In this document: positions 5,964 through 62,049 of the stretch, in pieces | Numbering within the stretch: position 1 is the stretch's first letter | How the letters are laid out: each line of letters starts with the position of its first letter | Origin: Pseudomonadota bacterium | GTDB lineage: Bacteria; Pseudomonadota; Gammaproteobacteria; Burkholderiales; DATLHW01 | Direction of reading: 5' to 3' | NCBI GenBank assembly: GCA_040388195.1 | Contig: JAZKCF010000008.1 | Location: 1,831-65,830 of the forward strand | DNA: 64,000 bases | The notes under the pieces: generated by a model | The model's database searches: none | What the model saw: the letters and a program-made list of their open reading frames with translations, nothing else | What the model was told of the DNA's origin: nothing | Program-made: the position numbers and the translations under genes

Positions 5964-6095
5964 TTATTAATAAAGAAACAATCCGCTTACACCTCAGGAA
6001 TGGGTTAGTTCCGCGCCTCCGCCTACCTGTGGCGAATTGCTTTTTCTAGGTACAATGGCGTCTCGTTTTATGTGTCGCATCCACAGAGACCTCCC

Positions 6096-41360: not shown

Positions 41361-41436
<76 letters not shown>

Positions 41437-41592
41437 TCTCTTTCCTCGATGGCGCTCTTGTCGCTGGCAATTTTGTTTCAAAACACAGTCAACGCAATTA
41501 GCCTATTGTTGGTTTAGTCGTGCAGTAAGACATAAAACCAACAGTATCCACCTCTCGCCTCCATGGCGGCCCCAACCATCCGGGAGCCGCTC

Positions 41593-44030: not shown

Positions 44031-44587
44031 AGCTCGCCATGTTCCCAGTAAATGACGTATCTGCCCGTTCCGTGCTTCTGCAAGAAATTTCACGGCGTAT
44101 CGAAAAAACCCAAATTAATGAATTGCAGACTAGCGGCCTTGATGTACCAACAATCGATCGGCTACGCGCTTTACCATATGGCACAGCCATATGTTTAGCG
44201 GACTTAGCGGCGGATTTGTTTTTTGTGGGAATCGATACCGGTCGATTGCATCTGCTGTTGGACGCTATGGAAGAGCGGAATCGAGCTGCGGCACTTCTCG
44301 AATACTACGTCGAGCACGGCGCCACGCTCACGATGATTCGCGCTTTGTTACGCCCTAGAAAGGACGTGCTCGCAGCCTACATCGAAAAGCTTTGCGGCGC
44401 CCTCCCTCGCGGCCGCCCGTCGCTTCCCGAAGTCACTATTCGCGATCGCATCCATGCAGTCTGGGCTGAGATTCAGAAATCCAAATTCGATCTCCCCGAA
44501 CGCGAGCGCCTCGTTGAGCTACATCGAGCGTTCTCTGTTTACAGCATGGCCACCCTCTACTCCGTCCTGAATGAGTTCAAGCGATGA
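44027..44587 (+). CDS. DUF2857-like ICE protein
   Basis: ATGA overlap with the parB stop, 186 aa. Position and size match DUF2857 in related islands; the assignment is from memory. Confidence 0.5.
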   Translation: MKLAMFPVNDVSARSVLLQEISRRIEKTQINELQTSGLDVPTIDRLRALPYGTAICLADLAADLFFVGIDTGRLHLLLDAMEERNRAAALLEYYVEHGATLTMIRALLRPRKDVLAAYIEKLCGALPRGRPSLPEVTIRDRIHAVWAEIQKSKFDLPERERLVELHRAFSVYSMATLYSVLNEFKR

Positions 44588-45048
44588 ATCAATACACAAC
44601 GACCCGCATCCCTTTCACTGCCACTCCCGCCAAGAACCCCAGCCATAGTCTGGGTCTTGATCCCGAACTGTTGCTGGAGTGGTTCCAAGCGCCTATTGCC
44701 TTTCATCGACCGTTGGTGGACTTAGCTGGCGGCAGCATTAGTGCCGCTGTCATGCTCACCCATGCCTTGCACGGGACGCGCGAGTTCTATTTTGCCGGCG
44801 AGTGCCATCCAAATTTGGCATTACAAGGTTTTATGCAAATGAGTCAGGTCGATTGGGAGCGTGAAACCGGACTTACTCGCTCGGCGCAAGAGACGGCACG
44901 ACGAATTCTCCGTAAACGCGGCTATCTCGAAGAAAAGCGCACCGGCATTCCAGCAAAGCTTTATTTCCGCGTGAATATTGAAAAACTATATGCGGATTTA
45001 AAAGCACAAGCGCGGAACCGCCTTAAAGAAGCTCATAGCAAACCATGA
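44584..45048 (+). CDS. island replication-like protein, one copy of a winged-helix-like module (STY4526-like?)
   Basis: 154 aa with the module PIAFHRPLVDLAGGSISAAVMLTHAL...RTGIPAKLYFRVNIEKL, shared with the next ORF. Confidence 0.45.
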   Translation: MNQYTTTRIPFTATPAKNPSHSLGLDPELLLEWFQAPIAFHRPLVDLAGGSISAAVMLTHALHGTREFYFAGECHPNLALQGFMQMSQVDWERETGLTRSAQETARRILRKRGYLEEKRTGIPAKLYFRVNIEKLYADLKAQARNRLKEAHSKP

Positions 45049-46469
45049 GGGACTTCCCAGTCCCTGGTGATCGAAAAGGTGTGTCGAATGCACTGACGAC
45101 GCTTTGGCCCCTTATCGGGCGGCCTGTCGCACTGCATCGTGGGCTGGTCGAACTGTGCGGCGGCGTCAAAACAGCCTTGATGTTGTCGCAAGCGATCTAC
45201 TGGACGCGCAAGGGAGTCGCCATTGCTGAAATGGATGGGTGGTTTCACAAGCGAATGGAAGACTGGCAATTAGAAATTGGCTTACGACGCCGCACACAAG
45301 AGCGCGCACGCAAGCACCTGCTTGCACTGGGCGTACTGGAGCAACGACTGCACGGACTACCAGCGCAGCTTGAGTTTCGAGTGAATCTTGAACAACTCGC
45401 AAACCTGCTTACAAAAGGTTCGGAAGCCGCTCAACCAATGCGCGAAATGATGTCGCTTTTCGGTGCGCCGCTTGCTTTTCATACCAGTCTTGCAAAGCTC
45501 ACCGATTCAGTTGCTGCCGGATTATTGCTTTCGAACCTACTTCATTTCACCCGACGACGCGTAATGGATGGCGTCGGCAATTTTGTTGAAATGCCATGGA
45601 TTGCGCTGGCGGCAACACGATGGATGGCTACCACCGGTTTATCACGACGAGAATTTGATGGTGCTAGAAACACCCTGCAGGCATTGGCGCTGATCACCGA
45701 ACGCCTACGCGGAATACCGCCAATTCTGGAAATGCGGGTGGAAATTATGGCGCTAGGGCGGCAATTAAGTCAGCAAATCCCCCAAAAAATGGGAAAACCC
45801 GTCAATTTGTACGTTTTGGACAACCAAGATTGCGAACAGCCCGCAATCACAGTTACCAACGACGCACATTCTAGTTTGTCCAAAATGTACAAATCAGATT
45901 GGCCGGAACACACAAAACAGGTTGGCCCAATCGCACAAAATGGTTTGGCCGAAAGCGCCAAAACATTATTAGATCTGACTACAGCTTTTAATACCTCTCT
46001 CTTACAACCACCTATTCAGGTAGAAACATCTACGCCCGCGACTACGCCGTGTGGTGGTGCGAACGATTCTTCTCTCATTTACCCCCACGTCCTCACATCG
46101 ATTGAGAAACAAGCTGTCAGTAACTTGCTAAGGAATGTTCAGCAAAAACACGCGCAGCTAATTCTCGACGAACTGGAGGGCAGATTACATCACGTTGGCG
46201 CGACAGGAATTCCCAATCGAGTGGGGTACGTGCGGCGATTACGCGACCTACATCTCGTTGGCGGCTTTGTACCGGAAACCGCATTGTCAGTTCAAGCGAC
46301 ACGTCTGCGGAAAACGGAAGAACGCGCCCGCCGCGTTATCGAAGCAGAAGACCGCGAAAAAGCAGCGGCTATCGCAGCAACGCCCGAAGCGAAGAAACGA
46401 CGCGAACAGGCTTTGGCCCAGACAAAAGCATTACTTGGCATTTCAGGAGCGGGGAGGAGCACCGCATGA
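45045..46469 (+). CDS. island replication-like protein, two copies of the same module (STY4528-like?)
   Basis: 474 aa containing two further copies of the module plus a basic C-terminal tail. Confidence 0.45.
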   Translation: MRDFPVPGDRKGVSNALTTLWPLIGRPVALHRGLVELCGGVKTALMLSQAIYWTRKGVAIAEMDGWFHKRMEDWQLEIGLRRRTQERARKHLLALGVLEQRLHGLPAQLEFRVNLEQLANLLTKGSEAAQPMREMMSLFGAPLAFHTSLAKLTDSVAAGLLLSNLLHFTRRRVMDGVGNFVEMPWIALAATRWMATTGLSRREFDGARNTLQALALITERLRGIPPILEMRVEIMALGRQLSQQIPQKMGKPVNLYVLDNQDCEQPAITVTNDAHSSLSKMYKSDWPEHTKQVGPIAQNGLAESAKTLLDLTTAFNTSLLQPPIQVETSTPATTPCGGANDSSLIYPHVLTSIEKQAVSNLLRNVQQKHAQLILDELEGRLHHVGATGIPNRVGYVRRLRDLHLVGGFVPETALSVQATRLRKTEERARRVIEAEDREKAAAIAATPEAKKRREQALAQTKALLGISGAGRSTA

Positions 46470-46488
46470 AAGCTAGCTACATGAAATG

Positions 46489-46553
46489 TGTTTACGCCGT
46501 AAACAAGAATTCGAGCAACCAATTCAAAGCAAATGTTGTTTACGCCGTAAACA
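46489..46553. promoter_or_regulatory. two copies of the 17-bp palindrome TGTTTACGCCGTAAACA (parS-like)
   Basis: Exact copies at 46489-46505 and 46537-46553, each preceded by AAATG. Confidence 0.6.
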
Positions 46554-46596
46554 GCCAACCAGTAATGATTCACCCATTCACCCACGCTGATGTTGC

Positions 46597-47733
46597 TTGC
46601 AGAGAGCCTGCCGCAACGACAATCGGAGACTTAATGTGAACCCGCACAAAATCGCAACGACCGCGCCCACAGAGCCGATGGAATTGATCGCTCAGCCAAT
46701 AGAAATTGCATCAACTTTGACGAGGTCTAACCAGCGCTCGCCGTTTTTTTCAGATGGCTATGACATCAACACCGAACGCGAAGCTCTCAAGGATTTATCT
46801 GAAAACCCAGATCCCGCTGATCCACGCTGGCCTCGATTCGTGGAACTACAAGAACGAGAGGAAGAACTGACGCAAATGCAGCGGCGACTTGAAGCACGCG
46901 CCGCCGCTGAACCAGTTGTTCCAGACCCTGAGGCACGTGGCATCCGCGAAGTGGGCCGCTTAGTCTCCGAAGAACAAGACCGGATGACATTGCACACGAA
47001 GGAAGCTTACCGGCTATTCATCGGCAAGGTGAATACCGGCGGCAAGAGCTTCGCTATCGCTGGAGGCAAACGCGTGGCTTCTGCCTTGCGATCGATTTAC
47101 TACCTGTCAAGCAATGACAACCCGTATGCCGACTGGGTCCTGGTGTCCTTCCAGCAAGGGCTGGACGAACTGCGCCAACTCATCGCACAAGAAACTGCCG
47201 CAAAGATGAAGCTGTTGAACGAACTGCGCCAACGCGGTTTGAGCTATTCCGTATTGCGCGCCGATCCGCCGAAGGATGTCGAGATTGGATTCAAGAGTCC
47301 ATACGGTTACGGCGTCGCCGAAATGCTGGTCGCGTTCGATTACTACGTGCGGCTCGCGAAAACTCTCGTTCGCAAAGATTTGTTGTCTGATCAAGATGGA
47401 TACGACGCGGTTCGGAAGGTCGCCCGTGTTGCACGGGCACTATTTTGGCAACCGGTTTCTTTCGAGCGGTATTTGATGCGGAAAGAACTGCAGCCACTGT
47501 CACGCGCCGATTGGCTGCCTGGCGCAAATGAATTAGCGGCGCAACGAGTACGGGCAGTTGTCGCGATATTCGGAGAGGTCCCAAGAGCAGTGTTTTCTGG
47601 CGCAGAAGCGCCACGACACAGTCGCCGGCGAGTGAATCTATCCGCAGAGGAACTGCGGCTATTAGAGACCATCGCATTAAATCCTGTATCGGTCGATACG
47701 GCGGACGATACCGCGATCAATCAACTGGTATGA
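46597..47733 (+). CDS. ICE protein, PFL_4669/TIGR03761-like
   Basis: 378 aa in the conserved position after the replication-like genes. The start is uncertain (TTG 46597, GTG 46636 with GGAGA upstream, ATG 46678). Confidence 0.5.
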   Translation: MQRACRNDNRRLNVNPHKIATTAPTEPMELIAQPIEIASTLTRSNQRSPFFSDGYDINTEREALKDLSENPDPADPRWPRFVELQEREEELTQMQRRLEARAAAEPVVPDPEARGIREVGRLVSEEQDRMTLHTKEAYRLFIGKVNTGGKSFAIAGGKRVASALRSIYYLSSNDNPYADWVLVSFQQGLDELRQLIAQETAAKMKLLNELRQRGLSYSVLRADPPKDVEIGFKSPYGYGVAEMLVAFDYYVRLAKTLVRKDLLSDQDGYDAVRKVARVARALFWQPVSFERYLMRKELQPLSRADWLPGANELAAQRVRAVVAIFGEVPRAVFSGAEAPRHSRRRVNLSAEELRLLETIALNPVSVDTADDTAINQLV

Positions 47734-47746
47734 AGTGGATTGTGTA

Positions 47747-48235
47747 ATGAACTCGATTGAGAGCGTAACGCTTTGTCAACAACGTGTTGACACAAAGGGT
47801 TTCAAGGGTAAGGGGGGCGTGGAAACCTGGGTCAGAAATGTGGTGAGCCGATTGAATGCTGTTCGTGAGGATATGGCGGCGTTGGCATCCGCGAGCAACC
47901 AGGTGGCGCCGCGTTACTTCCACCTGCAACTACATGCGCGAAGCGCTACCGGTAGTCTCTCGCTACGCTGGCGATTTACCACAGGAAAACATGCGCTATG
48001 GAAAGACTTGGCGCCGCACTTAACCGGCGTGCCCCAACGAATCGCTGATTGGTATCGCGCCGCGAATGAGGAAGCGGAACTGCTGAATGCGATGGAGCAA
48101 GCTTTACGCGCGGAACTCAGGATGGCGGAGCGACTGGCTATCCGAATGGGAGTTGGGCAGCAATGGCAACGGGAAACCGGATTGCGGTCATCGATAGTTT
48201 CGGTAGGCCAGCAAGAACCGAACCGAAAGCGTTGA
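47747..48235 (+). CDS. DUF3158-like ICE protein
   Basis: About 162 aa immediately upstream of ssb, as in related islands. Confidence 0.45.
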   Translation: MNSIESVTLCQQRVDTKGFKGKGGVETWVRNVVSRLNAVREDMAALASASNQVAPRYFHLQLHARSATGSLSLRWRFTTGKHALWKDLAPHLTGVPQRIADWYRAANEEAELLNAMEQALRAELRMAERLAIRMGVGQQWQRETGLRSSIVSVGQQEPNRKR

Positions 48236-48322
48236 CGAACATTTTGAAATTTAAGTGCGGACAATTATTTGAAGACGTTTCACGGGCAACGGGGTAATTC
48301 AACTTACTGATTGGAGAACACC

Positions 48323-48727
48323 ATGAGCAATGAATTTCGTGGCAATGGCAATCTTGCCGAGAATCCCGCTATCAAAACCGTCACCGTGGATGGCGAGGAG
48401 CGAAAGTTGGCCGAGATGCGTATCTTCTTCGACCGGCTTCGGCAGGATGGTGATGGCGGCCTCGCCGACAAGGGCGGCTTTTGGCTTGATGTGACGGCAT
48501 GGGGCAATGATCTCGCCGAGCGTTGCGGCAAGCTACTTCGCAAAGGTGCGCGGCTCCATGTGGTGGGTGAACTGCAACAACAGAAATGGACAAGTAAAGA
48601 ATCGGGTGAGGAAAAAAACGCGATGCAGCTTAATGCGAGCGAGGTGTACCTCGGCCTCTCACGCGTTGAGTCGGTGACTTACAAAGAACGTAAAACCGCA
48701 GCGGAGCGGGACTCCGAAGCGGCCTAA
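48323..48727 (+). CDS. ssb: single-stranded DNA-binding protein (short, no acidic tail)
   Basis: OB-fold pattern NEFRGNGNLAENP...FWLDVTAWGNDLAERC...GARLHVVGELQQQKW. GGAGAA RBS before the ATG at 48323. Confidence 0.85.
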   Translation: MSNEFRGNGNLAENPAIKTVTVDGEERKLAEMRIFFDRLRQDGDGGLADKGGFWLDVTAWGNDLAERCGKLLRKGARLHVVGELQQQKWTSKESGEEKNAMQLNASEVYLGLSRVESVTYKERKTAAERDSEAA

Positions 48728-50094: not shown

Positions 50095-50184
50095 GGCTAA
50101 CGGCCCAATTGAAGGACGCCCGCCCCGATGCTTGCATTAAGAAGTAACATTATTCGCTCACCGCTTTCGAATATAGTGTTAGAG
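50095..50184 (-). repeat. attC-like site B (family 2, 90 bp)
   Basis: Minus strand reads CTCTAAC-ACTAT-ATTCGAAAG...CCTTCAATT-GGGCC-GTTAGCC. It shares the blocks CGCCCCGATGCTT and AACATTATTCGC with sites C and E. Confidence 0.6.
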
Positions 50185-51580: not shown

Positions 51581-51593
51581 ATAACGGCTAGCC

Positions 51594-51673
51594 GATTAAC
51601 GTAACAGGCGCACGACGGAAAATCGAGCAGAGAAAGAACGATTATCGGCGCGTCCTGGTTCACGAGGTTAGGC
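51594..51673 (-). repeat. attC-like site D (family 1, 80 bp)
   Basis: Minus strand reads GCCTAAC...GTGAACCAGGACGCGCC...CGTCGTGCGCCTGTTAC-GTTAATC. The arms are near-identical to site F. Confidence 0.65.
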
Positions 51674-52093: not shown

Positions 52094-52181
52094 GCCTAAC
52101 GAAATTGAGAGGGGCGCGCCCCGATGCTTCCTTGAAAAACCAACATTATTCGCGCGTCCTTTCTCGAATGGGGTGTTAGAT
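52094..52181 (-). repeat. attC-like site E (family 2, 88 bp)
   Basis: Minus strand reads ATCTAAC-ACCCC-ATTCGAGAAAGG...CCCTCTCAAT-TTC-GTTAGGC. Both boxes match RYYYAAC and GTTRRRY exactly. Confidence 0.7.
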
Positions 52182-52238: not shown

Positions 52239-53204
52239 TCAAGTGTTGTTGGATGAGGTGTCTTCGCACTCATAAGGGCCAAACATTTCAATACCAGACG
52301 CGGCAGTTACTGGTAGGCTTACTTGTAGCTCATCTACATCCACCAATCGTCTGCGCAGCGAAAAGCTATCACGAACTTCGTGCATTTCATAAAACCGAAC
52401 TTCCTTTTCGCGCCCCTCTATAGCCTTGATCACTGAATGTATGATTGATGGCGGACAGCGAAGACCGAAAACAACCTCAGTTAGAAGTAACGGAGAGTCT
52501 TGTAGACCTTGCTTGCCGATCAAGCGCCATTCGGACTCATATTTCCAGCCACTCGCCTTTCGAAGCAATACATCTCGGTCCAAATCCACCATAGCCTTTT
52601 CGGCGTTATGCAGGAACGCATCACAAAGTATTGAAGTTCTAATTGCGCGACTACCTCCATAGATAACTTTTTGCAACTGAGGGACAGGATTACGCTTTGT
52701 GCTGTATCCGATACAAATTCCTTGGTGCTGATCACCATAGTGGCTCCAAAGAAGAGGATTTGAATACGATGTGGAGAAACAGCAAACACCTCTTTCATAC
52801 CAACGGCGCAACTCACACTCAATAGCTTGCATTAGTAACCAGGACTCGTTTTCTTCCAATGCTCCCTCGTAGTCTGGATTCGTCGCGTTGTAGGCTATGT
52901 TGGCCAGCTCATTTTCTGTCTCACGTCGGGCTCTCTTCGTTGCGTGCTCACTGGCAGTATTTCCTCTTATACGAGCATGGCTCAAATGGGAAAGCACTTC
53001 GGATGAAACTCTCTTGCTAAAGAAAAAAGCAAGAAGCTTTCTGAGATCATCATTATTGGAGTCACAACTGAGTGTTGGGCTACAGTCTAGGGGATCATTA
53101 AACGCGCCGGGATGAGAAAAGAAAAGAGTGTCATAGCATAGTGAATCCAGCGTTGTCGTACTAAACGCGCGATAACGGTAGAAAGTCTTGGGTTGGTTTG
53201 TCAT
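52239..53204 (-). CDS. cassette ORF 2, DUF2971-like protein
   Basis: 321 aa. The N-terminal FYRYRAFS...TLDSLCYDTLFFSHPGAFNDPLDC is typical of DUF2971. Confidence 0.6.
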   Translation of the reverse strand: MTNQPKTFYRYRAFSTTTLDSLCYDTLFFSHPGAFNDPLDCSPTLSCDSNNDDLRKLLAFFFSKRVSSEVLSHLSHARIRGNTASEHATKRARRETENELANIAYNATNPDYEGALEENESWLLMQAIECELRRWYERGVCCFSTSYSNPLLWSHYGDQHQGICIGYSTKRNPVPQLQKVIYGGSRAIRTSILCDAFLHNAEKAMVDLDRDVLLRKASGWKYESEWRLIGKQGLQDSPLLLTEVVFGLRCPPSIIHSVIKAIEGREKEVRFYEMHEVRDSFSLRRRLVDVDELQVSLPVTAASGIEMFGPYECEDTSSNNT

Positions 53205-53235
53205 GAAACTTGGTTTTGTAATCGTTGAGTCTAAC

Positions 53236-53318
53236 GATTAACGTAACAGGCGCACGACGAAATGCTAAGCAGAGAAGGAGCGATTATTCGTGCGTCCTGG
53301 TTCACGACTGAGTTAGAG
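53236..53318 (-). repeat. attC-like site F (family 1, 83 bp)
   Basis: The first 24 nt (plus strand GATTAACGTAACAGGCGCACGACG) are identical to site D. The distal arm TGCGTCCTGGTTCACGA is also shared, and the centre is variable. Confidence 0.65.
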
Positions 53319-53585
53319 TTGCGTTTGGATTGCATAGACAACAAACCTCTCACCATTCAAATCGATAGTTTTGCACCAGACATTCTTTCGGTTGGGGACT
53401 TCAGCAAACTCACCACCGTGTGCCTTTTGAGACAACTCTTTTTTCAGCGGCGGCGAGAGACCAGGAAGGGCGTTCTCTGGTAAGTCACCAGACCAACTTG
53501 AAACGAACCCTTTAAAGTTACTGTAACTACCTTGCGCAACATAGGTCGAGTCTCTGAAAGAGGCAATGTATGTATAGAGTGGCAT
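53313..53585 (-). CDS. cassette ORF 1, hypothetical (90 aa)
   Basis: The ATG at 53585 lies 5 nt after a perfect GTTAGAT core (53591-53597). The stop is next to site F. Confidence 0.5.
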   Translation of the reverse strand: MPLYTYIASFRDSTYVAQGSYSNFKGFVSSWSGDLPENALPGLSPPLKKELSQKAHGGEFAEVPNRKNVWCKTIDLNGERFVVYAIQTQL

Positions 53586-54253
53586 TGAAAATCTAACAGT
53601 GTTTATACGGACCCGTCGATCTGTATATCAATTATTAATAATGACAGCCATTATGCGTCGTACATTATTGATCTACAACATGGGATCAGTTTTTGCATCT
53701 CTATAAAAACCTCAATATTGGGGGCGCGACGAAGCGTAAAACTTCAATTAGGGTTCTCTGCTTTTTCATAAGAAGTGACAATCTTATGGGATGAATCGGT
53801 TAATCCCCTACACTTGCGTGATCAACACTCCATCGTTTGACGGGAAGCACGGACCGGGTTCGGCACGAACGGCCGCATTAGGAACTGTACTTCTGCGGTC
53901 GCTTTGATCGGGTATTGCCTGATCGTTGAAAAGCGATGCGTTCGGTTCCGCTGCATTGCTACCATCGAGTCGTGTGAGTACGATATACCACTGTGGCACG
54001 AAGTTGCTGATCGACAAAGGCAACATGCCAGAAGATATTCCCATGGATGAAGTAACGCTCTCCAAGATAATCGAATGTCGCAAAGCAATTATGCATGTCA
54101 GCACGCTTGTCACAATCGATCCGTTACTAGATATAAAATGGTTGAGAAAACCTCATAATCTGCCTTGACAACGAATTCGATCAGTGTACGATTTAAAGTG
54201 TTCTTCGTTAGCTGAGTCAGCTCGCCTCACATGCGCAAAGTGTGGCCTTTAAA

Positions 54254-54301
54254 GCCGTGAGACCCCTGGTAGGAACGGCATAACCGCAAGGTTTGGGGTA
54301 A
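54254..54301 (+). other. type I conserved pseudoknot-forming element, copy 1
   Basis: GCCGTGAGACCCCtggtaggAACGGCatAACCgcaaGGTTtGGGGTAA. Pairings are CCGT/ACGG and ACCCC/GGGGT, with an inserted GCAA-tetraloop hairpin. Confidence 0.6.
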
Positions 54302-54634
54302 TGAGTCATTCACCATCAGACGAGAAATCATTTCTCGTTACTAGCACGATGCATTTGATTTCTCTTTGAGAAAGTATCGTGCCGATCATTTGCACGATTA
54401 CCAATCGACTACAGCATTGAAGAAAGTCGTACGTCCACGTAATGGCGATCACGATATTTTTTCCGGCTTGAAAACGATGTGACGTTCCTCGTTTATAGCC
54501 GCGTTACTCACCTTGACCGGTGATGCATTGTCGCAGTCGATTCATCGTTTCACACCCCTGTCCGGGAGGCTTTTGTCTCCCCTTGGGGCGACATGACCTC
54601 CCTTTTTTTGTTTGTCATTAGAAAGGAGATGTTC

Positions 54635-55087
54635 ATGTCCGACCTTACCCACAATGAAGCAAATACCAACGCCACCGACGGTTCCGTATTCTTTGACCTC
54701 CATGTCAATGGTATCGGCTATCTCAATCGCGTCCGCGAAGTGAAGGTGAAGAAAGGCCAATTCCTGGCCTGCTCCATCAGCGCCATTCGTGGAGATACAT
54801 CCGATGTCGATTACACGAAGTTCGATGTCCGTGTGACCGGGACTGAAGCGAAAGAAATCGTCAAGCAGTTGAAGTCGACCGTCGATGCTAAAAAAGCGGT
54901 GATCGTCGGCTTCAAGCTGGGTGACATTTATCCAGAGAAATTCGTGTACGAAAACGGTGATCGCAAAGGTGAAGTCGGCGTTGTCATTAAAGGCCGGCTT
55001 CTCAAGGTGCGATTCGCCAAGGTAGACGGTATGAACATCGATCTGCCGAGGGAAGTCCCTGCCCAAGCGACCGGAACCAACGGTTGA
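54635..55087 (+). CDS. DUF3577-like (STY4534-like) ICE ssDNA-binding/replication-associated protein
   Basis: About 150 aa with FFDLHVNGIGYLNRVREVKVKKGQFLACSISAIRG. AAGGAG RBS before the ATG at 54635. Confidence 0.65.
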   Translation: MSDLTHNEANTNATDGSVFFDLHVNGIGYLNRVREVKVKKGQFLACSISAIRGDTSDVDYTKFDVRVTGTEAKEIVKQLKSTVDAKKAVIVGFKLGDIYPEKFVYENGDRKGEVGVVIKGRLLKVRFAKVDGMNIDLPREVPAQATGTNG

Positions 55088-55102
55088 ACTAACTGGGATA
55101 TC

Positions 55103-55142
55103 GACGGAACACTCGCGCCCTTTCGGCGGCGGGTGTTCCGTC
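55103..55142 (+). other. long GC-rich hairpin after the DUF3577-like gene
   Basis: GACGGAACAC...GTGTTCCGTC is a 10-bp stem with an inner CGCC/GGCG pairing. No T-run follows. Confidence 0.5.
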
Positions 55143-55173
55143 ACTTACTGGATAGCAATCGAAAGGAGTTTTC

Positions 55174-55656
55174 ATGAATTGCATAAACAACCAATTACGG
55201 CCACTGCCGACACGAAAATCCATCACGGTCGAAATCGATGCGGCAAAAGCACCGGCCTTTAATGAACTGCTCAACGAATTTTTCAACGGAACGCGTTATC
55301 AAGCAATCGTTGAAAAAAAGCGAGCGGATCAGGAAACACAAATTGCATCTCTGCAGCATCTTTATAACTTGACTCAAAAGCATTCAGGAACTGGGCAAGC
55401 GCGTGTGATCGCTCATTTCTTGGCTTGCCTGTACAACGGTTATCGCTTTCAATTTGATCTGACCGATTTTCGATCGCTTGATACCGATATCTTCCAGCAT
55501 TGCCTCAATGTGTTGTGGCTTGATAATCAACCGGCGCAAGAAGTGCATTGTTACTTCCAAAACGGCGGCGAATTATGGGAGCGCATGATCGAGGAATATG
55601 GACTGAAAGACCGGAGCAAGATAAATGCGTTGGCAAGTAGTAGCCGAAACATTTAG
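55174..55656 (+). CDS. hypothetical ICE protein
   Basis: 160 aa with an AAGGAG RBS 7 nt upstream. No motif recognised. Confidence 0.5.
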   Translation: MNCINNQLRPLPTRKSITVEIDAAKAPAFNELLNEFFNGTRYQAIVEKKRADQETQIASLQHLYNLTQKHSGTGQARVIAHFLACLYNGYRFQFDLTDFRSLDTDIFQHCLNVLWLDNQPAQEVHCYFQNGGELWERMIEEYGLKDRSKINALASSSRNI

Positions 55657-55782
55657 CTTCATGTCTCAGGCAGATGAGACAGTTATGTTTTCGCATCATC
55701 GCCAGTTCCATCGCTTTAACGCTGAGCCTTACCTTGAACCAAATTCCCGTTTTGCACGTTTCGGACAAAACGTGCGCCATAA

Positions 55783-55827
55783 ACCGTGAGACCCCTCGAA
55801 AGAACGGCGGGCGCAAGCCTGGGGTAA
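55783..55827 (+). other. type I conserved pseudoknot-forming element, copy 2
   Basis: ACCGTGAGACCCCtcgaaagAACGGCgGGGCgcaaGCCTGGGGTAA, preceded by the hairpin GCACGTTT-cggac-AAACGTGC. Confidence 0.6.
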
Positions 55828-56120
55828 TCCGTAATTCCTCGCGAATGGCGTCTGGGACTCCCTGACACCTGCTCGGATCAACTTGGCGGTTATCCTGGTG
55901 CCGTCACAGTATCTAGCGCTTCTCGCGGGCGTCGTCTTCGTCGGCGTGAATCGCTGCCGAATTTCTTGAAGTAACTACTGCCGTCGTGATTTTGTCGATC
56001 GAGATGAAATCCCGGCGGCGCCATTTTTTAATTTCCTGCGGGATATGCAATTTCCCCGCAGGGAAGTTGCGTCTTTCGCGGGCCTTTTTGTTCCATCACC
56101 CACGCAAAGGATACGCAATC

Positions 56121-56684
56121 ATGATTACCGTTAGTGGCACCCTACTCGTTAAAACGGTTCACGGTCGTCGCGGTGATTTCGCCGTCGGCACGCTGCTCAC
56201 CGAAATCGGCGAGTTCAAAGTGAAAGACACCATTCTCGATCAATTTTCCGAAGGGGAATATCGCGGTCATTTCGCAATCGGACGCATCTATCAAGGCTCC
56301 TATGCATGGAAAGGAGCAACGATCAGTGAGCTGCGCGCGAATATCACCGATATAGAACTGGAAGAGGCGAATGAGAAACCGGTTCAATCGACGGAGAACC
56401 CGTCGTCGGCGGATCCGATTGAAGAACCAAGTCCGGTAGCAGATGTGCCGGAGGACTCAAGTACATCAGCGGTGATCGATACGCAGCATGCGATGCCTTC
56501 GTCGTTGGACACAGCGGCGGAGACAGATGATATCGAATCAGCTATCGCGTTATCGCTACCCGTAAAACTTGATCCAACTGTCGACCGTGCGCTCTTTAGA
56601 ACGCAACGCGATCGATTAAAAACAGCCGGCTACCGCTTCGACGCTTCAAAGCAGACTTGGCTTTCGTCTGCTACGGATGAATAG
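56121..56684 (+). CDS. DUF3275-like ICE protein
   Basis: MITVSGTLLVKTVHGRRGDFAVGTLLTEIGEFKVKD N-terminus and an acidic C-terminal half. ATG at 56121 with an AAGGA RBS. Confidence 0.55.
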   Translation: MITVSGTLLVKTVHGRRGDFAVGTLLTEIGEFKVKDTILDQFSEGEYRGHFAIGRIYQGSYAWKGATISELRANITDIELEEANEKPVQSTENPSSADPIEEPSPVADVPEDSSTSAVIDTQHAMPSSLDTAAETDDIESAIALSLPVKLDPTVDRALFRTQRDRLKTAGYRFDASKQTWLSSATDE

Positions 56685-57006
56685 GTGATTTTCAATTAAC
56701 AATCATGAGTGGTATTTGCCCGCATTCGCGGGCATACCGATGGGGCGTCTCATCGGCATGCCCGTGAGCTCCGGGTGTATTCAGCCTGGGTAAGCGACCG
56801 CCCGAGAAAGGTCGCGCCCTTGGCGCTTGCGGCGCGCAGTTCATACAAGGAACGCGCTAGGAATCCATATATTTGTTGGTGAGCCTCTTTATACAAAGGG
56901 GCCGCTAAAGCGTGTCAAAACTATCCAAGCACGTTTTAGCAGCCGTTTTGTCGTTGTTCAACCGTGACTGCCGGCAGCAGTCCGATTAACGTCCGTTAGA
57001 CGTTAT

Positions 57007-57052
57007 GCCGTGAGACCCCTTGAAAGAACGGCTGGCGATTAGCCTGGGGTAA
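57007..57052 (+). other. type I conserved pseudoknot-forming element, copy 3
   Basis: GCCGTGAGACCCCttgaaagAACGGCtGGCgattaGCCTGGGGTAA, preceded by the hairpin AACGTC-cgtta-GACGTT. Confidence 0.6.
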
Positions 57053-57136
57053 CCGTACTTACACATCACCAACCTGGTGGGAAGCCGATTCCCGCCGGGG
57101 AGAGGGTTTTCCGCTTTTCTTAAGGAGATCCTCGCC

Positions 57137-57727
57137 ATGAAAAATCACCACGTCATCGACGACATTCGCGCTCTGCCGGATGCCGCGTTATTGCAACAAT
57201 TTTTTCACGCCGACACGCGGCAAATTCTTGCTGAATGCAATGAAAGCTTACTCGCTGTGCTTGCACGGCGTAATTGTTCCAAGCGGCAACGAACGTTGCT
57301 TGCCGGTATTGAAGTAGCGCGTCGGGCAGTGCTTGAAGAACTGAGCGCAATGAAGTCGCTGACATCACCATGTTTAGTTAACGAGTATCTGCATCTTCAC
57401 TTTCTGGGGTGCGAAGAAGAACGGTTCTGCGCTGTTTGGCTTGATGCGAGAAACAGACCCATAGCGTTCGACGAATTGTTTCGCGGAACGCTGACGCAGG
57501 CCAGTGTCTATCCACGTGAAGTGGCGAGACGCGCATTGCAACGAAATGCAGCGAGTGTGATTTTTGCGCACAACCATCCGAGTGGCACGGCTGAACCATC
57601 TCACGCGGATGAGCTGTTAACGCAAAATCTTAAAAAAACGCTCGCATTGGTTGACGTGCGTGTATTGGATCATTTCATCGTCGCCGGCGCAGCCACGCTG
57701 TCGTTTGCACAACGCGGACTGCTCTAG
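57137..57727 (+). CDS. radC: RadC-like JAB/MPN domain protein
   Basis: HNHPSG...PSHAD JAMM motif. AAGGAG RBS before the ATG at 57137. Confidence 0.85.
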   Translation: MKNHHVIDDIRALPDAALLQQFFHADTRQILAECNESLLAVLARRNCSKRQRTLLAGIEVARRAVLEELSAMKSLTSPCLVNEYLHLHFLGCEEERFCAVWLDARNRPIAFDELFRGTLTQASVYPREVARRALQRNAASVIFAHNHPSGTAEPSHADELLTQNLKKTLALVDVRVLDHFIVAGAATLSFAQRGLL

Positions 57728-57749
57728 CGTTTTGCTTTTATAAAAACGC
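57727..57749 (+). terminator. weak hairpin terminator after radC
   Basis: GCGTTTT-gcttttata-AAAACGC followed by a T-rich tract. Confidence 0.4.
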
Positions 57750-57768
57750 CTTATTTACTTTTCTTCAT

Positions 57769-57815
57769 CAACCCTCGCGGGGAATCAGCCCGCATGGGCG
57801 AATGGTTTCCTGCGA
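57769..57815 (+). other. type II conserved intergenic element, copy a
   Basis: CAACCCTCGCGGGGaatCAGCCCgcatGGGCGAatggTTTCCTGCGA, directly upstream of the methylase gene. Confidence 0.5.
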
Positions 57816-57834
57816 TTTCTTTCAGGAAAATATC

Positions 57835-58950
57835 ATGGCACTCATGTTTCAGCGCTTGGCGCGCAACTTTATCAAAGCTGGTTATTTTCCAACCGACGAG
57901 GTAACACTTTCGCGCATCCTAAATGCCATCGATATCGGTGGTGCCCGTTTGCGAGTACTTGATCCTTGTTGTGGCGAAGGTACTGCGATCGCTGAGGTAT
58001 GCAACCACCTTGGCGAATGTGGCGCCGACATCGATAGTTTCGGCATCGAGTACGACCTGGAACGAGCATGGCACGCGAAATCGATTGTCAGTACCGTGAT
58101 TCATGCCGATATGAACGATGTATTTGTCACAGCTCGCTCGATGGGACTGTTATTTCTCAATCCTCCCTACGGCAATGCCGTCCGGGATCAAGCGGAGACA
58201 GGTTCTGGAAAACGCAGTGAACGTATTGAAACGGCGTTTGTGAAGCGGTGCATGGGCTGGCTGCAATTTGGCGGGCTGCTCGTACTCATCGTGCCGCACT
58301 ACGCTTTCGATCGGGAACTCTCTACGATTGTTGCGCGCAACTTTGAGCGTGTAACGATTTTCACCGCACCGGAGCCACGCTTCAAGCAAGTGGTGCTCTT
58401 TGGGGCGAAGCGACGTAGCGATGTTCCTGATATGGACGTGGCAGCGATGTTGGAGAAAGTAGGCCGCTCGACGTATGGCAGTCCGGAAATGCCATCCGTG
58501 TTACCGCAAGATTGGAGTGGCATGCCCTACGAAATTCCATCACCAAAGGAAACGGCCGAATTTCGATTCGTCTCCGTAAAGCTCGATGGCCCGCAACTTG
58601 CCGTCGAATTGGATCGATTGAAAAAATCGACACTATGGCCACAATTCGATGCCATTTTTCAGACAAACGCCCGACCACATCGTCGACCGTTACGCGACTT
58701 ATCTCGCTGGCATTTGGCTCTGGCGCTTGCGGCAGGCCAAGTGGCTGGTGTGGTTCGAAGCCATGATGGTAGATCGCTGCTAATCAAGGGCGATACCTTC
58801 AAGGAAAAGAGCGCTACTGTCGAGCGTCAAGAACATGCGGATGGCACCTTTGCCGAAACGAGAATCCTGACGGACAAATTCGTGCCCGTCATCACCGGCA
58901 TCGACTTTACGCCGGGTCCTAATTTCGGCGAAATCGTCACCATACGTTAA
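57835..58950 (+). CDS. SAM-dependent DNA methyltransferase (NPPY type)
   Basis: Motif I VLDPCCGEG, then motif IV LFLNPPYG. ATG at 57835 with an AGGAAA RBS. Confidence 0.8.
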   Translation: MALMFQRLARNFIKAGYFPTDEVTLSRILNAIDIGGARLRVLDPCCGEGTAIAEVCNHLGECGADIDSFGIEYDLERAWHAKSIVSTVIHADMNDVFVTARSMGLLFLNPPYGNAVRDQAETGSGKRSERIETAFVKRCMGWLQFGGLLVLIVPHYAFDRELSTIVARNFERVTIFTAPEPRFKQVVLFGAKRRSDVPDMDVAAMLEKVGRSTYGSPEMPSVLPQDWSGMPYEIPSPKETAEFRFVSVKLDGPQLAVELDRLKKSTLWPQFDAIFQTNARPHRRPLRDLSRWHLALALAAGQVAGVVRSHDGRSLLIKGDTFKEKSATVERQEHADGTFAETRILTDKFVPVITGIDFTPGPNFGEIVTIR

Positions 58951-58958
58951 TCATTTAC

Positions 58959-59009
58959 CAACCCACTCGCGAGGGAGTCTGTCCCTCACGGGGCATGGCT
59001 TCCCTGCGA
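58959..59009 (+). other. type II conserved intergenic element, copy b
   Basis: CAACCCACTCGCGAGGGAgtctgTCCCTCACGGGGCATGGCTTCCCTGCGA. Confidence 0.5.
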
Positions 59010-59031
59010 CTTTTTGTCAAAAGGAGTAACC

Positions 59032-59676
59032 ATGCCACTGTATCGAGTTAGAGAAATGTCTGATGTTTTCGTCGACGCTTGCGTTCGCGATACATCGGGA
59101 GATCTCTTGTTTTTATCCTGTTACGGCCGTGATACGGCGCTGACGCAGCTTTTCGCCGCGTTTTCGCTGAGTCCGGCCCAAGGCGGTTTTACGCAAATCA
59201 CATTGGAAGCAGACGATGGCTGCGTTCATCGCGTAGGTATCGCTGGTGCAGAACGTTTTAAGAAACTGGCCGGACGATTGCCGAAGGACAATCTATTCGG
59301 CAATGTGGCGCAGACGTGGATCTACGATCCTATCGTTTTGGAACCAGATCGATCCAATCGGATCGGTTGGGTATTGCTCGATCTCAACTCAGCTTCGAGC
59401 GAGGCAAGCGCAATTAGGACAGAAATCGACCGGCGAGTTTGGGCGATGTATCAGATTCTGTCTCCTGTGCCCTTGCTACCAGCATGGGAACGACCTATCC
59501 GTAACGCAACACGAGAGGCCGTTCATGACATGCAGGCTTCCCCGTTTCCGGCGCTTGGACGCATTTCTGCATTGCTCGTGCATTTGCCGGCTGAATTTAG
59601 CGAGCAAGTGTCGCAGCTCGTGAAAACCCGTGTCATCGATATCGTTACGCCAACTCAGGTAGCGATAGCAGCCTAA
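59032..59676 (+). CDS. hypothetical protein between methylase and helicase
   Basis: 214 aa with an AAGGAG RBS. No motif recognised. Confidence 0.5.
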   Translation: MPLYRVREMSDVFVDACVRDTSGDLLFLSCYGRDTALTQLFAAFSLSPAQGGFTQITLEADDGCVHRVGIAGAERFKKLAGRLPKDNLFGNVAQTWIYDPIVLEPDRSNRIGWVLLDLNSASSEASAIRTEIDRRVWAMYQILSPVPLLPAWERPIRNATREAVHDMQASPFPALGRISALLVHLPAEFSEQVSQLVKTRVIDIVTPTQVAIAA

Positions 59677-59689
59677 ACGTTACTTCAAT

Positions 59690-59736
59690 CAACCCTCGCG
59701 GGGCCAACGCCCTGCTGGGGCGTTGCCTCGCCTCGA
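59690..59736 (+). other. type II conserved intergenic element, copy c
   Basis: CAACCCTCGCGGGGcCAACGCCCtgctGGGCGTTGcCTCGCCTCGA. Confidence 0.5.
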
Positions 59737-59753
59737 ATCTTTATGGAGGCATT

Positions 59754-62012
59754 GTGGAAACAATTCTGGAAGCATCTCAAGAAATCACAAATGTATTAGC
59801 GCTACCGCAGTTCATCGCGGATTTTGGCGATAGTTTGCTTGAATCAGTCCGGTCGGGTAATCCGCCGATTTATGACGGAAAATCCGATGCGACACGTAAT
59901 CAAGTAATGGAGCAGCTTCTCCGTAAACCATTCGGCGCTCAACAGGAAACCGTCCAGGCGGTGACAAAGCTACTGGTCGATCACAATCAACCGGCAGCGG
60001 TCATCAACGCGGAAATGGGGACTGGCAAAACCATGATGGCGATCGCTACAGCCGCTGTCATGCACGCCGAAGGCTTTCGTCGCACGCTCGTTATTTCGCC
60101 ACCGCACTTGGTCTACAAATGGCGGCGTGAAATCAAGCAGACGATTCCCAACGCAATCGTAACGATCTTGAACGGTCCCGACACCCTCCGAAAATTACTT
60201 GCGCTTCGCGGCATGCAGGCTAATGCGGAGACGCCGGAATTTTTCATTCTCGGGCGAGTCCGCATGCGAATGGGTTTCCACTGGCGTCCTGCGTTTGCCA
60301 TTCATCGCCGTCAATTGATCGACGACAACGGCGCCAAGGCCGGCGGGTTTGCCTGCTGTCCAAGGTGCGGATCGTTTGTCACCGACGAGGACGATGACCC
60401 TCTTCTGGAATTGGCTGCACAAAGTTTTCTCGATCGTGAACGGCGGGCTTGTCAGTCTTGTGGCGAGCGGTTATGGATGCTTGTCGCTCGTGGCAAGGCG
60501 TCGAAATCCAAACGTGACCTGCTTCTTGGTTCACTCACGCAAATTCCGACGATCGGCGAGAAAAGTGCTGAACGCTTGGTAACCAGATTCGGCGAAGAAA
60601 TGCTTGCCGGCATGTTGGAAGACAATGTGTTCGAATTTATCAATCTGATGAACGATGAAGGAGAGTTGGTATTCAACGATCGGCAAGCCCGCCGAATGGA
60701 ACGCGCCATGGCGAATATGGAGTTTTCTTTTGGTCAAGGCGGTTATCAGCCGACGGAATTCGTGAAGCGTTATCTGCCTCAAGGGTTTTTCGGACTCTTG
60801 GTTGTAGATGAAGGCCACGAATACAAAAACGAAGGCTCAGCGCAAGGACAAGCCATGGGCGTGCTGGCGCGGAAGTGTAGTAAGACAATTCTGCTAACCG
60901 GCACGTTGATGGGCGGTTACGCCGATGATCTGTTTCATTTGCTGTGGCGCCTCAATCCACAGCTCATGATGGAAGATGGATTCGGTTACAACGCACGACG
61001 AAGTCTTGGCCCTGCACAGTTGGCGTTCATGCGAGAGCATGGTGTGGTGAAGGATATCTATAAGTCGACTGAATCGGGTGAAGCGCATCGTACCGCAAAG
61101 GGAAGCAAGACCACTCATCGCGTTGCAAAGGCGCCTGGCTTTGGTCCAAAGGGCATCGCGCGATTTGTTCTGCCGATCACGGTTTTCCTGAAGCTTAAGG
61201 ATATTGGTGGCAATGTGTTACCACCATACCGTGAATTCTTTACCGATATTGCGATGACGACTGAGCAATTGGATGCCTACTCTCGATTGGAGTCAAGACT
61301 GGTGAGTGAACTGCGCACTGCATTGGTAAGGGGTGACAAGAGCTTGCTGGGTGTTGTGTTGAATACGTTACTGGCTTGGCCCGAGTGTTGTTTTCGGGAT
61401 GAGTTGGTACGACACCCGCATACTCGATCACAGCTCGCATACCAGCCGGCGATTTTCCGCGAGGAAGATGTCATGCCCAAGGAGGCGATGTTGCTTGATC
61501 GATGCAAAACTGAGCGTGCAAAAGGTCGTCGCGTTCTTGCCTATACGATTTACACGGGCACGCGTGATACCTCCGCACGCTTGAAGGCGCTCCTTGAACG
61601 TGAGGGGTTCCGGGTAGCCGTGCTGCGTGCAAGCGTTGAAGCAGTGAAGCGGGAAGACTGGCTATTCGAGCAGGTTGACCGTGGTGTGGATGTGCTCATT
61701 ACGAATCCGGAATTGGTGAAAACGGGATTGGATTTGCTGGATTTTCCGACGATCGTTTTCATGCAATCGGGTTTTAATGCCTACACGCTTCAACAAGCCG
61801 CACGCCGAAGCTGGCGAATCGGACAAAGGCAAGATGTGGATGTGCATTATCTTGGTTATGCCGGTAGTGCGCAGATGCAGTGTCTGCGGTTGATGGCGAA
61901 GAAGATTGCGGTGTCGCAGTCTACGTCAGGTGATATGCCGGATTGTGGGCTCGATATTCTTAATCAAGATGGTGACAGTATTGAGGTTGCACTGGCAAAA
62001 CAACTTGTGTAA
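59754..62012 (+). CDS. SNF2-family helicase with inserted zinc ribbon
   Basis: Motif I AEMGTGKT, motif II VVDEGHEYKN, motif III LLTGTLMGG, motif VI QQAARRSWRIGQ, plus CPRCG...CQSCG. GTG start. Confidence 0.8.
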   Translation: METILEASQEITNVLALPQFIADFGDSLLESVRSGNPPIYDGKSDATRNQVMEQLLRKPFGAQQETVQAVTKLLVDHNQPAAVINAEMGTGKTMMAIATAAVMHAEGFRRTLVISPPHLVYKWRREIKQTIPNAIVTILNGPDTLRKLLALRGMQANAETPEFFILGRVRMRMGFHWRPAFAIHRRQLIDDNGAKAGGFACCPRCGSFVTDEDDDPLLELAAQSFLDRERRACQSCGERLWMLVARGKASKSKRDLLLGSLTQIPTIGEKSAERLVTRFGEEMLAGMLEDNVFEFINLMNDEGELVFNDRQARRMERAMANMEFSFGQGGYQPTEFVKRYLPQGFFGLLVVDEGHEYKNEGSAQGQAMGVLARKCSKTILLTGTLMGGYADDLFHLLWRLNPQLMMEDGFGYNARRSLGPAQLAFMREHGVVKDIYKSTESGEAHRTAKGSKTTHRVAKAPGFGPKGIARFVLPITVFLKLKDIGGNVLPPYREFFTDIAMTTEQLDAYSRLESRLVSELRTALVRGDKSLLGVVLNTLLAWPECCFRDELVRHPHTRSQLAYQPAIFREEDVMPKEAMLLDRCKTERAKGRRVLAYTIYTGTRDTSARLKALLEREGFRVAVLRASVEAVKREDWLFEQVDRGVDVLITNPELVKTGLDLLDFPTIVFMQSGFNAYTLQQAARRSWRIGQRQDVDVHYLGYAGSAQMQCLRLMAKKIAVSQSTSGDMPDCGLDILNQDGDSIEVALAKQLV

Positions 62013-62017
62013 GAAGT

Positions 62018-62049
62018 AGCGCCCCGCCTTTTGGTGGGGTGCTTTTTTT
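62018..62049 (+). terminator. rho-independent terminator after the helicase
   Basis: AGCGCCCCGCC-tttt-GGTGGGGTGCT followed by T7. Confidence 0.8.

Follow-up and report, generated by a model that had tools for sequence, protein, structure and literature searches.

The radC RNA motif (Weinberg et al. 2010, PMC2864571; RF01754) has been described solely as an element located in the 5′ untranslated regions (UTRs) of radC, integrase, methyltransferase, and antirestriction genes. Its published description includes neither pairing to a Shine-Dalgarno (SD) sequence or AUG start codon nor an alternative fold (PMC2864571). Here we describe a second conserved element, termed the leader, that recurs in a 64,000-nucleotide (nt) stretch of contig JAZKCF010000008.1 (GenBank assembly GCA_040388195.1, from a Pseudomonadota bacterium of the order Burkholderiales), hereafter called the window. 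The leader resembles the radC motif in the family of mobile elements that carry it, in the classes of genes located downstream (radC, methyltransferase, antirestriction, and integrase), in strand, and in its placement within 5′ UTRs. Judged from its sequence, the leader appears to represent an uncatalogued family of SD-sequestering structures that accompany individual cistrons, one copy each, in establishment modules of proteobacterial integrative conjugative elements (ICEs), and that are physically coupled to an orphan RNA motif. No description of it was found in the literature on the radC RNA motif, on leader structures of ICEclc and PAPI-1, or on translation of leading regions.

An initial annotation of the window had reported three occurrences of a CAACCC..TCGCG..GGG element, each preceding a gene. 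A search of the whole window with the pattern CAACCC[N0-2]TCGCG[N0-2]GGG confirmed this observation, yielding exactly three matches, all on the forward strand, at positions 57769, 58959, and 59690. No match was obtained in 100 dinucleotide-preserving shuffles of the window. A gap of 17-22 nt separates the end of each pattern-element from the downstream start codon (57835, 59032, and 59754), and the second and third elements begin 8 nt past the methylase stop codon and 13 nt past the preceding stop codon, respectively. Although one copy is indeed present before each of these three genes, the block contains a fourth, diverged copy before radC. This copy was identified with a covariance model of the family (R1, see below) at E=1.6e-5 in a search of 81 sources and at 5e-7 in a filters-off search of positions 41000-64000, and the latter search revealed no copies beyond the four. 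The originally proposed element length of 47-51 nt is also too short, as the unit spans ~75 nt and also takes in a loop rich in U, the SD, and the start codon.

To define the family, 80 related loci, mostly from Betaproteobacteria, were retrieved through alignment of methylase homologues. A first survey of these loci with a regular expression, and then with an nhmmer profile, revealed numerous copies per locus, nearly all of which are on the gene strand. Model R1, which was built on 28 copies, produced 235 matches at E≤0.01 in a search space of 719 kilobases (81 sources, including the window), and all 235 are on the gene strand. An additional 68 R1 matches are present in metagenome contigs that were retrieved independently by a methylase-independent pattern scan, with a single orientation within each contig. 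Six exact pattern matches in viral contigs are probably due to chance because none of them is an R1 match at E≤0.001. Rather than being absent from orthologous operons, the element is found throughout orthologous blocks, and the family is conserved from Betaproteobacteria to the Pseudomonas element pKLC102.

The copies run in the 3′ direction through the U-rich stretch, SD, and start codon, and the 5′ anchor is located 60-70 nt from the start codon in 110 of the 129 copies for which a start codon could be identified. Spacing from the upstream stop codon varies, with a peak at 10-19 nt and many copies at 40 to more than 200 nt. Translational coupling was rejected as a general mechanism, given that more than half of the copies are over 40 nt from the end of any open reading frame (ORF). 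The ORF downstream most commonly encodes an SNF2 helicase in the methylase-anchored loci (25 of 136). Others encode a 55-amino-acid (aa) protein (14), RadC (13), a KlcA/ArdB-type antirestriction protein (PF03230; 11), DUF3577 (11), the DUF6094 methylase (7), DUF6573 (7), and several unknown proteins. The independent contigs additionally include ArdC-like antirestriction proteins, RecT, SSB, and DUF932. By their annotations, these genes form one functional class, namely the establishment and anti-defence repertoire of conjugative elements. Pfam matches and clusters likewise place the leader in the 5′ UTRs of the gene classes that are typical of the radC motif.

Structurally, the leader can be divided into a series of segments. 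From the 5′ end, these are a pyrimidine-rich flank (S0), S1 with the sequence (C)AACCC, S2 with the sequence (C)GCGGGG, a variable segment (V5), S3 (CCCCGC), S4 (GGGG), a second variable segment (V3, often CAUGGUG), and the anti-SD segment S5 (UCUCCGC). These are followed by a loop of 7-9 nt that is rich in U, the SD (GGAG), a spacer (V6), and the start codon. The S1 and S2 positions (57769 to 57782 in copy 2) are nearly invariant across the family. Two mutually exclusive folds can form from these segments. In state 2, S1 pairs with S4 around S2:S3 (ACCC/GGGG around GCGGGG/CCCCGC) to create a 5′ hairpin, and a second hairpin is formed by V3+S5 and SD+V6+AUG, such that SD, spacer, and start codon are all engaged by the anti-SD strand (..GGUGUCUCC). 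In state 1, a single long hairpin of ~17-20 base pairs with internal loops is formed by S2+V5 and V3+S5 (GCGGGG.. with ..CUCCGC) and is capped by S3:S4, which leaves the U-rich tract, SD, and AUG single-stranded.

Minimum free energy (MFE) folds of single sequences differ among copies. Canonical copies adopt state 2, and the window copies at 57767 and 58961 adopt state 1. In the first of these (copy 2), TCGCGGGGAA pairs with TTTCCTGCGA around the GCCC-gcat-GGGC hairpin. The MFE fold of copy 1 consists of hairpin A and an SD-containing hairpin. In copy 3, CATGG (58994-58998) is complementary to CCATG (59030-59034), and in copy 4, GCCTC (59731-59735) pairs with GAGGC inside the SD GGAGGC (59745-59750). 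Three hairpins that had been quoted in the initial annotation as preserving pairing despite sequence change are present with the letters given. However, the first of them, GCCC-gcat-GGGC, corresponds to the apical hairpin S3:S4, whereas GAGGGA-gtctg-TCCCTC arises from pairing of S2 with S3 in the alternative fold and CAACGCCC-tgct-GGGCGTTG combines S3:S4 with an extension. These are non-homologous positions, and therefore no compensatory changes are evident within the window.

The larger alignments, which had been proposed as the proper place to look for compensatory pairing, do reveal genuine covariation across the family. An alignment of 28 copies by MAFFT and RNAalifold recovered no covariation and no pairs other than the invariant S2:S5 and S3:S4, and column-wise partner scans were uninformative owing to the runs of C and G nucleotides. 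For this reason, we used a covariance-model alignment and segment-based duplex tests. In the alignment (A4), which was fitted to state 2 and thus biases the column counts of both states, 86.2% of state 2 cells are paired. In shuffles the value is 78.1%, and sliding of the partners lowers it to 47-58%. Both sides have changed in 16 of the 22 pairs of state 2, including nine of the 12 pairs in helices 3 and 4, which hold the SD and start codon. The covariation score is 0.235, which none of 500 shuffles reached, compared to 0.117. Examples of such changes are found at columns 18-31 (AU 74, UA 23, CG 15, GC 4), at columns 13-37 (CG 109, UG 9, UA 7, AU 3), and at columns 56-121 of the SD hairpin (GC 41, GU 23, CG 19, UA 7).

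The second approach was free of alignment and compared the duplex energies of cognate and non-cognate segments in 54 non-redundant copies. Strong preferences for the cognate partner were observed for the anti-SD strand (V3+S5) with SD+V6 (z=-8.3) and for S2 with S3 (z=-8.5), as well as for the state 1 pairing of S2+V5 with V3+S5 (z=-11.3) and for V5 with V3 alone (z=-6.2), although the copies are related by descent, so that these z-scores and the shuffle counts given above overstate independence. Two control pairings were not significant. Constrained folding places the two states near each other in energy, with both being stable and with a difference, E(state 2) - E(state 1), of -3.0 +/- 5.7 kcal/mol.

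Among the roles suggested in the initial annotation, these data favour a shared translational signal, given the fixed distance to the start codon, the covarying pairs that involve the SD, spacer, and AUG, and the sense-strand orientation of all 235 copies. The leader would be a cis-acting mRNA element of ~75 nt that lies directly upstream of individual cistrons in the establishment/anti-restriction module of an ICE. State 2 is predicted to hide the ribosome-binding site (RBS) and start codon through V3+S5 pairing, and state 1 would free the U-rich tract, SD, and AUG by capturing the anti-SD strand with S2+V5. Because one fold hides these signals and the other frees them, the most likely role of the leader is to set or switch translation initiation individually for each gene, and we consider SD/AUG sequestration the probable mode of control. 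The functional form would then be RNA rather than DNA, and translation would be the process that is controlled. Interconversion of the two states is also to be expected if the leader is a switch, although we hold the two-state switch with less confidence than sequestration itself.

The proposed model invokes a chain of alternative partners (SD-S5-S2-S3-S4-S1) wherein each segment can pair with the next. With the SD fixed by 16S rRNA, such a chain would explain why sequence-conserved runs of C and G are found beside flanking stems that covary. Several triggers could act on the 5′ end of this chain. A ribosome that terminates 10-19 nt upstream of S1 could reach this segment in approximately one-third of the copies. 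Where a radC-type pseudoknot is located upstream, its 3′ run of G nucleotides (GGGGU/GGGAC) is complementary to S1 and might compete for it. Alternatively, S1 might be removed by 5′ processing, or the leader might be bound by a repressor protein encoded by the element. Masking of S0+S1 in folding calculations reduces the cost of opening the RBS by 1.7 kcal/mol (p=9e-8).

Several results weigh against sequestration or against a switch between the two folds. Covariation supports state 2 better than state 1, for which 80.1% of cells are paired in A4 compared to 76.2%, with a score of 0.179 compared to 0.146, and the middle-stem pairs of state 1 are broken in 40-50% of the sequences. The SD is predicted to be unpaired with a probability of 0.20, versus 0.25 when the upstream part is shuffled, and the RBS opening energy of 9.4 kcal/mol differs marginally from the 8.1 kcal/mol of shuffled controls (p=0.017). 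By itself, the thermodynamic modelling thus lends modest support, as it indicates neither strong nor switchable repression. The similarity between V5 and V6 that would be expected if V5 were an SD mimic is absent (z=0.8). Moreover, a long hairpin followed by a U-rich tract is compatible with a transcription terminator as well.

This last feature raises the possibility that the long hairpin of state 1 and the U-rich tail form an intrinsic terminator for each cistron, with the 5′ hairpin (S1:S4/S2:S3) serving as the antiterminator. Expression of the block would then need termination to be blocked, for example by a processive antitermination factor of the element or its host, or by a stabilizer of the 5′ hairpin. 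Bipartite antitermination systems govern conjugation operons in Gram-positive plasmids. The GC-rich base of the stem (GCGGGGA/UCUCCGC) is directly followed by a pyrimidine/U-rich tract, the loop is 57% U and 5% G, and at least five U nucleotides are present in the 8 nt after the long hairpin in 83 of the 137 distinct copies (61%). A simple terminator scan also flags hairpins or sub-hairpins in three of the four window copies. We nevertheless consider attenuation unlikely. The U-tracts are often interrupted (ACUUCUU, ACUCUCU), with no more than two U nucleotides in the first four positions in 57 of the 137 copies, and terminator-like sites are not enriched in the region (13 versus 10.6 expected). 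Unlike the leader, ordinary terminators lack sequence conservation across genes and genera. In addition, the SD is still untranscribed when the decision to terminate is made, neither fold provides both a full transcript and an open SD, and the covariation of V3+S5 with the SD, spacer, and AUG would be left unexplained. Such covarying pairs are likewise not required of an intercistronic processing or stability element, in which an RNase III-type hairpin site or U-rich RNase E sites, as in phage T7 early genes, would be cleaved to split the polycistronic mRNA, leaving hairpins that protect the ends or activate translation. Single copies between consecutive cistrons, the ~17-20 base-pair hairpin with internal loops in state 1, and the pyrimidine/U-rich single-stranded flanks on either side are all consistent with such a role, and processing has been reported for PesA, a neighbouring RNA from the same family of islands (PMC5493400). 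However, a nuclease site is not identifiable from the sequence, and approximately one-third of the copies are not intercistronic but follow a radC-like domain or a long gap. We consider a processing or stability element quite improbable as the explanation. As a trigger, processing is compatible with translational control.

Action at the level of DNA, either as a single-stranded DNA (ssDNA) promoter for each gene, as also suggested in the initial annotation, or as a repeated double-stranded DNA (dsDNA) operator for a repressor encoded by the element, would suit the establishment or leading-region type of the downstream genes. Both ssDNA promoters and repeated operators are known from such regions (PMC6294495, PMC11541004), and plasmid p576 carries repeated operators before its establishment genes (PMC6294495). 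The 5′ half of the leader is, moreover, conserved in sequence as well as in structure. Despite these parallels, we regard a DNA signal as highly unlikely. Pairs of promoter-like -35/-10 (sigma-70-like) hexamers are absent in or beside the copies, and hairpins of ~50 nt are far shorter than those of Frpo-type promoters (>100-300 nt). In S2:S5, 113 of the 137 sequences carry a conserved G.U pair, which would become a C.A mismatch on the opposite strand, and the non-Watson-Crick cells of state 2 include 165 GU/UG versus 79 AC/CA combinations, which favours the sense strand. Covariation of base pairs is unexpected for a dsDNA operator, and the SD and AUG are inside the element at a fixed spacing. 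The proposal of an ssDNA promoter per gene is thus not supported, because of the sense orientation, the inclusion of SD and AUG in the structure, the G.U pairs, and the lack of sigma-70-like hexamers. Finally, the presence of many GC-rich and partly palindromic copies per locus is reminiscent of selfish or neutral intergenic repeats, such as repetitive extragenic palindromes (REP) or miniature inverted-repeat transposable elements (MITE), that have spread within the island. Such repeats would be expected in either orientation and without register, whereas all 235 copies are co-oriented with genes and maintain a fixed distance to the start codon. Their gene-specific 3′ part covaries with the spacer between SD and AUG of the respective gene, no terminal repeats or target duplications were seen in them, and they are conserved from Betaproteobacteria to pKLC102 of Pseudomonas. 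The orientation and spacing statistics already contradict this explanation, and we give it almost no credence.

The model of the radC motif spans 149 positions and comprises a pseudoknotted core as well as a 3′ hairpin of its own, whereas the leader is a separate module located downstream. Specifically, the leader lacks the pseudoknotted core of the radC motif, in which the loop of hairpin 1 (..GRYCUUCRA..) pairs with a 3′ GRY..C and is accompanied by flanking hairpins. At the gathering score of 40 bits, the Rfam radC model has no match in the window or in 16 related loci, and at E≤10 there is none in window positions 53000-62000 and 56940-57145 or in one related locus (L039:3640-3840 and L039:3730-3840). 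A cmscan search against Rfam 15 likewise yielded no family for the leader or for the pseudoknot element of the window, at gathering thresholds or at E≤10. As a positive control for the Rfam model, pKLC102 (NC_019202.1, locus L081) contains three radC motifs with scores of 82-97 bits (L081:2482-2629, 3559-3709, and 6087-6224). Leaders detected by R1 are found directly 3′ of all three (2637-2721, 3736-3822, and 6230-6293) after gaps of 6-27 nt. Other cistrons of pKLC102 are preceded by a leader without a radC motif, as exemplified by 8302-8374 and by 10473-10559, the latter before a helicase gene.

The same arrangement can be recognized in the published radC data. In the Stockholm file, canonical leader sequences are found in the unaligned 3′ flank (GUCUCCGC 30 times and CGCGGGGA eight times), and in at least one row of the alignment the 5′ hairpin of the leader has been aligned as the variable 3′ hairpin of the motif. 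A radC-like pseudoknot ends within 80 nt upstream in 52 of the 150 best leader copies (approximately one-third). The remaining two-thirds, including the window copies at 57769, 58959, and 59690, lack a radC-like domain within this distance. Because the Rfam model does not match the leader, and because R1 leaders lie 3′ of radC matches, the leader is a distinct, unannotated module that neighbours the radC motif and is not the radC motif itself. Given that the radC motifs of pKLC102 end a few bases upstream of leaders, however, the leader is a candidate for the expression platform of the radC motif and may serve in this capacity.

In the window, a repeat that we call element A is located 130-380 nt upstream of the DUF3577, DUF3275, and radC genes, and leader copy 1 begins ~10 nt downstream of the radC-like pseudoknot element at 57005-57060. 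Element A contains a hairpin (GCCGT..ACGGC) with the loop ..AGACCCCTTGAAAGA.. (..AGACCCC..), a second small hairpin, and a GGGGT sequence that is complementary to the ACCCC of the loop. By eye, this appears to be an H-type pseudoknot with the layout of the radC motif core, although the Rfam radC model does not match element A. A related form, GTCAGTCCCTGAAACGAGCACGGCC-GCAA-GGTCCGGGAC, occurs 90 times in the related loci, in each case on the gene strand. The small RNA PesA of PAPI-1 was considered as a possible leader and rejected, as its probe and primers map with few mismatches to L081 ~1854-2118, which is elsewhere. PesA is located in the pilM-proximal part of a long intergenic region, and the first radC motif, with its leader, follows ~360 nt downstream. 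PesA is reported to be a processed transcript, and therefore the whole region is transcribed on the sense strand.

The coordinates of the leader copies, of the segments of copy 2, and of the associated genes are collected in the table.

Table. Leader copies and associated features of the window (positions are those of the window; the copy 2 segments were read from the sequence).
Feature	Position	Strand	Description
Leader copy 1	57067..57142	+	Before radC (ATG 57137); R1 37.6 bits; missed in the initial annotation
Leader copy 2	57767..57843	+	Before DUF6094 methyltransferase gene (ATG 57835); pattern match; R1 32.3 bits
Leader copy 3	58961..59040	+	Before 214-aa ORF (ATG 59032); pattern match; R1 28.2 bits
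Leader copy 4	59688..59759	+	Before SNF2-type helicase gene (GTG 59754); pattern match; R1 27.2 bits
Copy 2, S1 CAACCC	57769-57774	+	Read from sequence
Copy 2, S2 TCGCGGGG	57775-57782	+	G-run; possible partners are S3 (CCC) or the anti-SD strand
Copy 2, anti-SD strand TTTCCTGCGA	57806-57815	+	Read from sequence
Copy 2, U-rich loop	57816-57822	+	Read from sequence
Copy 2, SD CAGGAAA	57823-57829	+	Complementary to TTTCCTG; homologous pairs covary in A4
Copy 2, ATG	57835-57837	+	Read from sequence
Element A	54252-54300, 55781-55836, 57005-57060	+	Associated upstream repeat; repeat families D3 and D4
RadC-like JAB-domain gene	57137..57727	+	PF04002, E=1.8e-40; leader copy 1 in front
DUF6094 methyltransferase gene	57835..58950	+	PF19587; leader copy 2 in front
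Conserved ICE protein gene (214-aa ORF)	59032..59676	+	No Pfam match; leader copy 3 in front
SNF2/DEAD-type helicase gene	59754..62012	+	PF00176, PF04851, PF00271; leader copy 4 in front

By Pfam annotation, the block at 57137-62012 consists of establishment/anti-restriction genes on the same strand, and genes for DUF3577, DUF7673, and DUF3275 proteins are located upstream of radC in the same orientation. The start codon at 57835 is corroborated by an identical 371-aa protein in the database, and the N-terminus of the 214-aa ORF resembles, by eye, an ORF downstream of one radC motif in the published radC alignment. Immediately 3′ of a tRNA gene (41361-41433, forward strand) is a series of ICE maintenance ORFs (41563-48727) that includes ParA-like and ParB-like ORFs as well as an SSB-like ORF (48311-48727), where the ParA, ParB, and SSB labels were assigned by eye from translations. 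The tRNA side looks like one end of an ICE that is inserted at the 3′ end of the tRNA gene. The gene content of the block and this flank indicate that the block belongs to an ICE of the PAPI-1/pKLC102/GGI type, and the same domain families are known from such islands (PMC3334931, PMC12629846). The filters-off R1 search of positions 41000-64000 found no leader copies in the tRNA-proximal part of the ICE.

The leader of the DUF3577 gene (54540-54634, forward strand) reads CACCCC..CCGGGAGG..CTCCCC-TT-GGGG..CCTCCC-T-rich-AGGAGATGTTCATG, with alternating runs of C and G and an anti-SD/SD pair as in the leader copies. Model R1 did not detect this region, which might represent a fifth, degenerate copy. 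The interval from the radC stop codon to leader copy 2 (57727-57768, forward strand) contains an AT-rich hairpin (GCGTTTT..AAAACGC) whose tail is rich in T, and a strong terminator-like hairpin with a run of T nucleotides, AGCGCCCCGCC..GGTGGGGTGCT TTTTTTT, follows the helicase stop codon (62018-62043, forward strand). Together, these hairpins might correspond to partial and final ends of transcripts from the block. A complete Kiwa anti-phage system (62203-63078 and 63083-63592, reverse strand; KwaB E=4.7e-104 and KwaA E=1.1e-71 by PADLOC) is convergent with the helicase gene and located immediately downstream of it. The system is a defence cargo, and its location corresponds to what has been termed a helicase-bounded hotspot in a study of Pseudomonas islands. 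Two pairs of direct repeats (51593-51665 / 53235-53307, 73 nt with 85% identity, and 50107-50157 / 52103-52153, 51 nt with 78% identity) are found in the minus-strand cargo region between the SSB and DUF3577 genes, each near the start of a minus-strand ORF.

The genes that protect incoming DNA, such as those for antirestriction proteins, methylases, SSB, and RadC, are needed fast and briefly, and their control has so far been ascribed to ssDNA promoters and transcriptional repressors. If translational control by the leader is correct, an RNA structure that hides the RBS would add a translational layer to this control in ICEs from both Beta- and Gammaproteobacteria, among them the PAPI-1/pKLC102 family, which is of clinical relevance. 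The leader would also provide a testable output domain for the radC RNA motif, for which no function has been proposed since 2010, and would constitute a short modular part of ~75 nt. It is possible, although we remain doubtful, that the leader serves both as the missing expression platform of the radC motif and as a standalone gate for each cistron, wherein an occupant of the 5′ ACCC flips all establishment genes on just after entry. The G-run of a radC-type pseudoknot, an upstream terminating ribosome, a 5′ cut, or the absence of a repressor in a fresh recipient might fulfil this role. Zygotic induction would then occur at the level of translation instead of transcription.

Regulators of plasmid establishment genes include the Frpo/ssp ssDNA promoters, EGeRS1, and the Reg576 operators of the pLS20/p576 family (PMC8708921, PMC6294495, PMC11541004). 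As with the leader, these are conserved, GC-rich, structured repeats located before genes of the antirestriction and SSB type, where rapid and transient expression after transfer is called for. However, they span 100-500 nt, act or are proposed to act on transcription, contain promoters or operators, and are present once per operon, whereas the leader is present once per cistron. No sequence relationship of the leader to Frpo/ssp, EGeRS1, or Reg576 was seen. Intrinsic terminators and the intercistronic RNase III sites of phage T7 share with the leader a stable GC-rich hairpin that recurs between cistrons and carries a U-rich tail. Unlike these elements, the leader is conserved in sequence across genes and genera, has a covarying alternative fold, and contains a 3′ strand that is complementary to the SD and AUG. 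More similar in operation are riboswitch expression platforms and the mRNAs of the type I toxins dinQ, hok, and aapA1 (PMC5066626; PMC5416894). In these RNAs, as proposed for the leader, an anti-SD strand pairs with the SD and start region and an upstream segment competes for this strand, and loss or occupation of the 5′-most segment is predicted to favour the open form. In contrast to these RNAs, the leader has no ligand-binding domain within its 75 nt and no toxin gene, its switch is inferred, and it is reused once per cistron in one operon-like block. The resemblance is one of working mode rather than of family membership.

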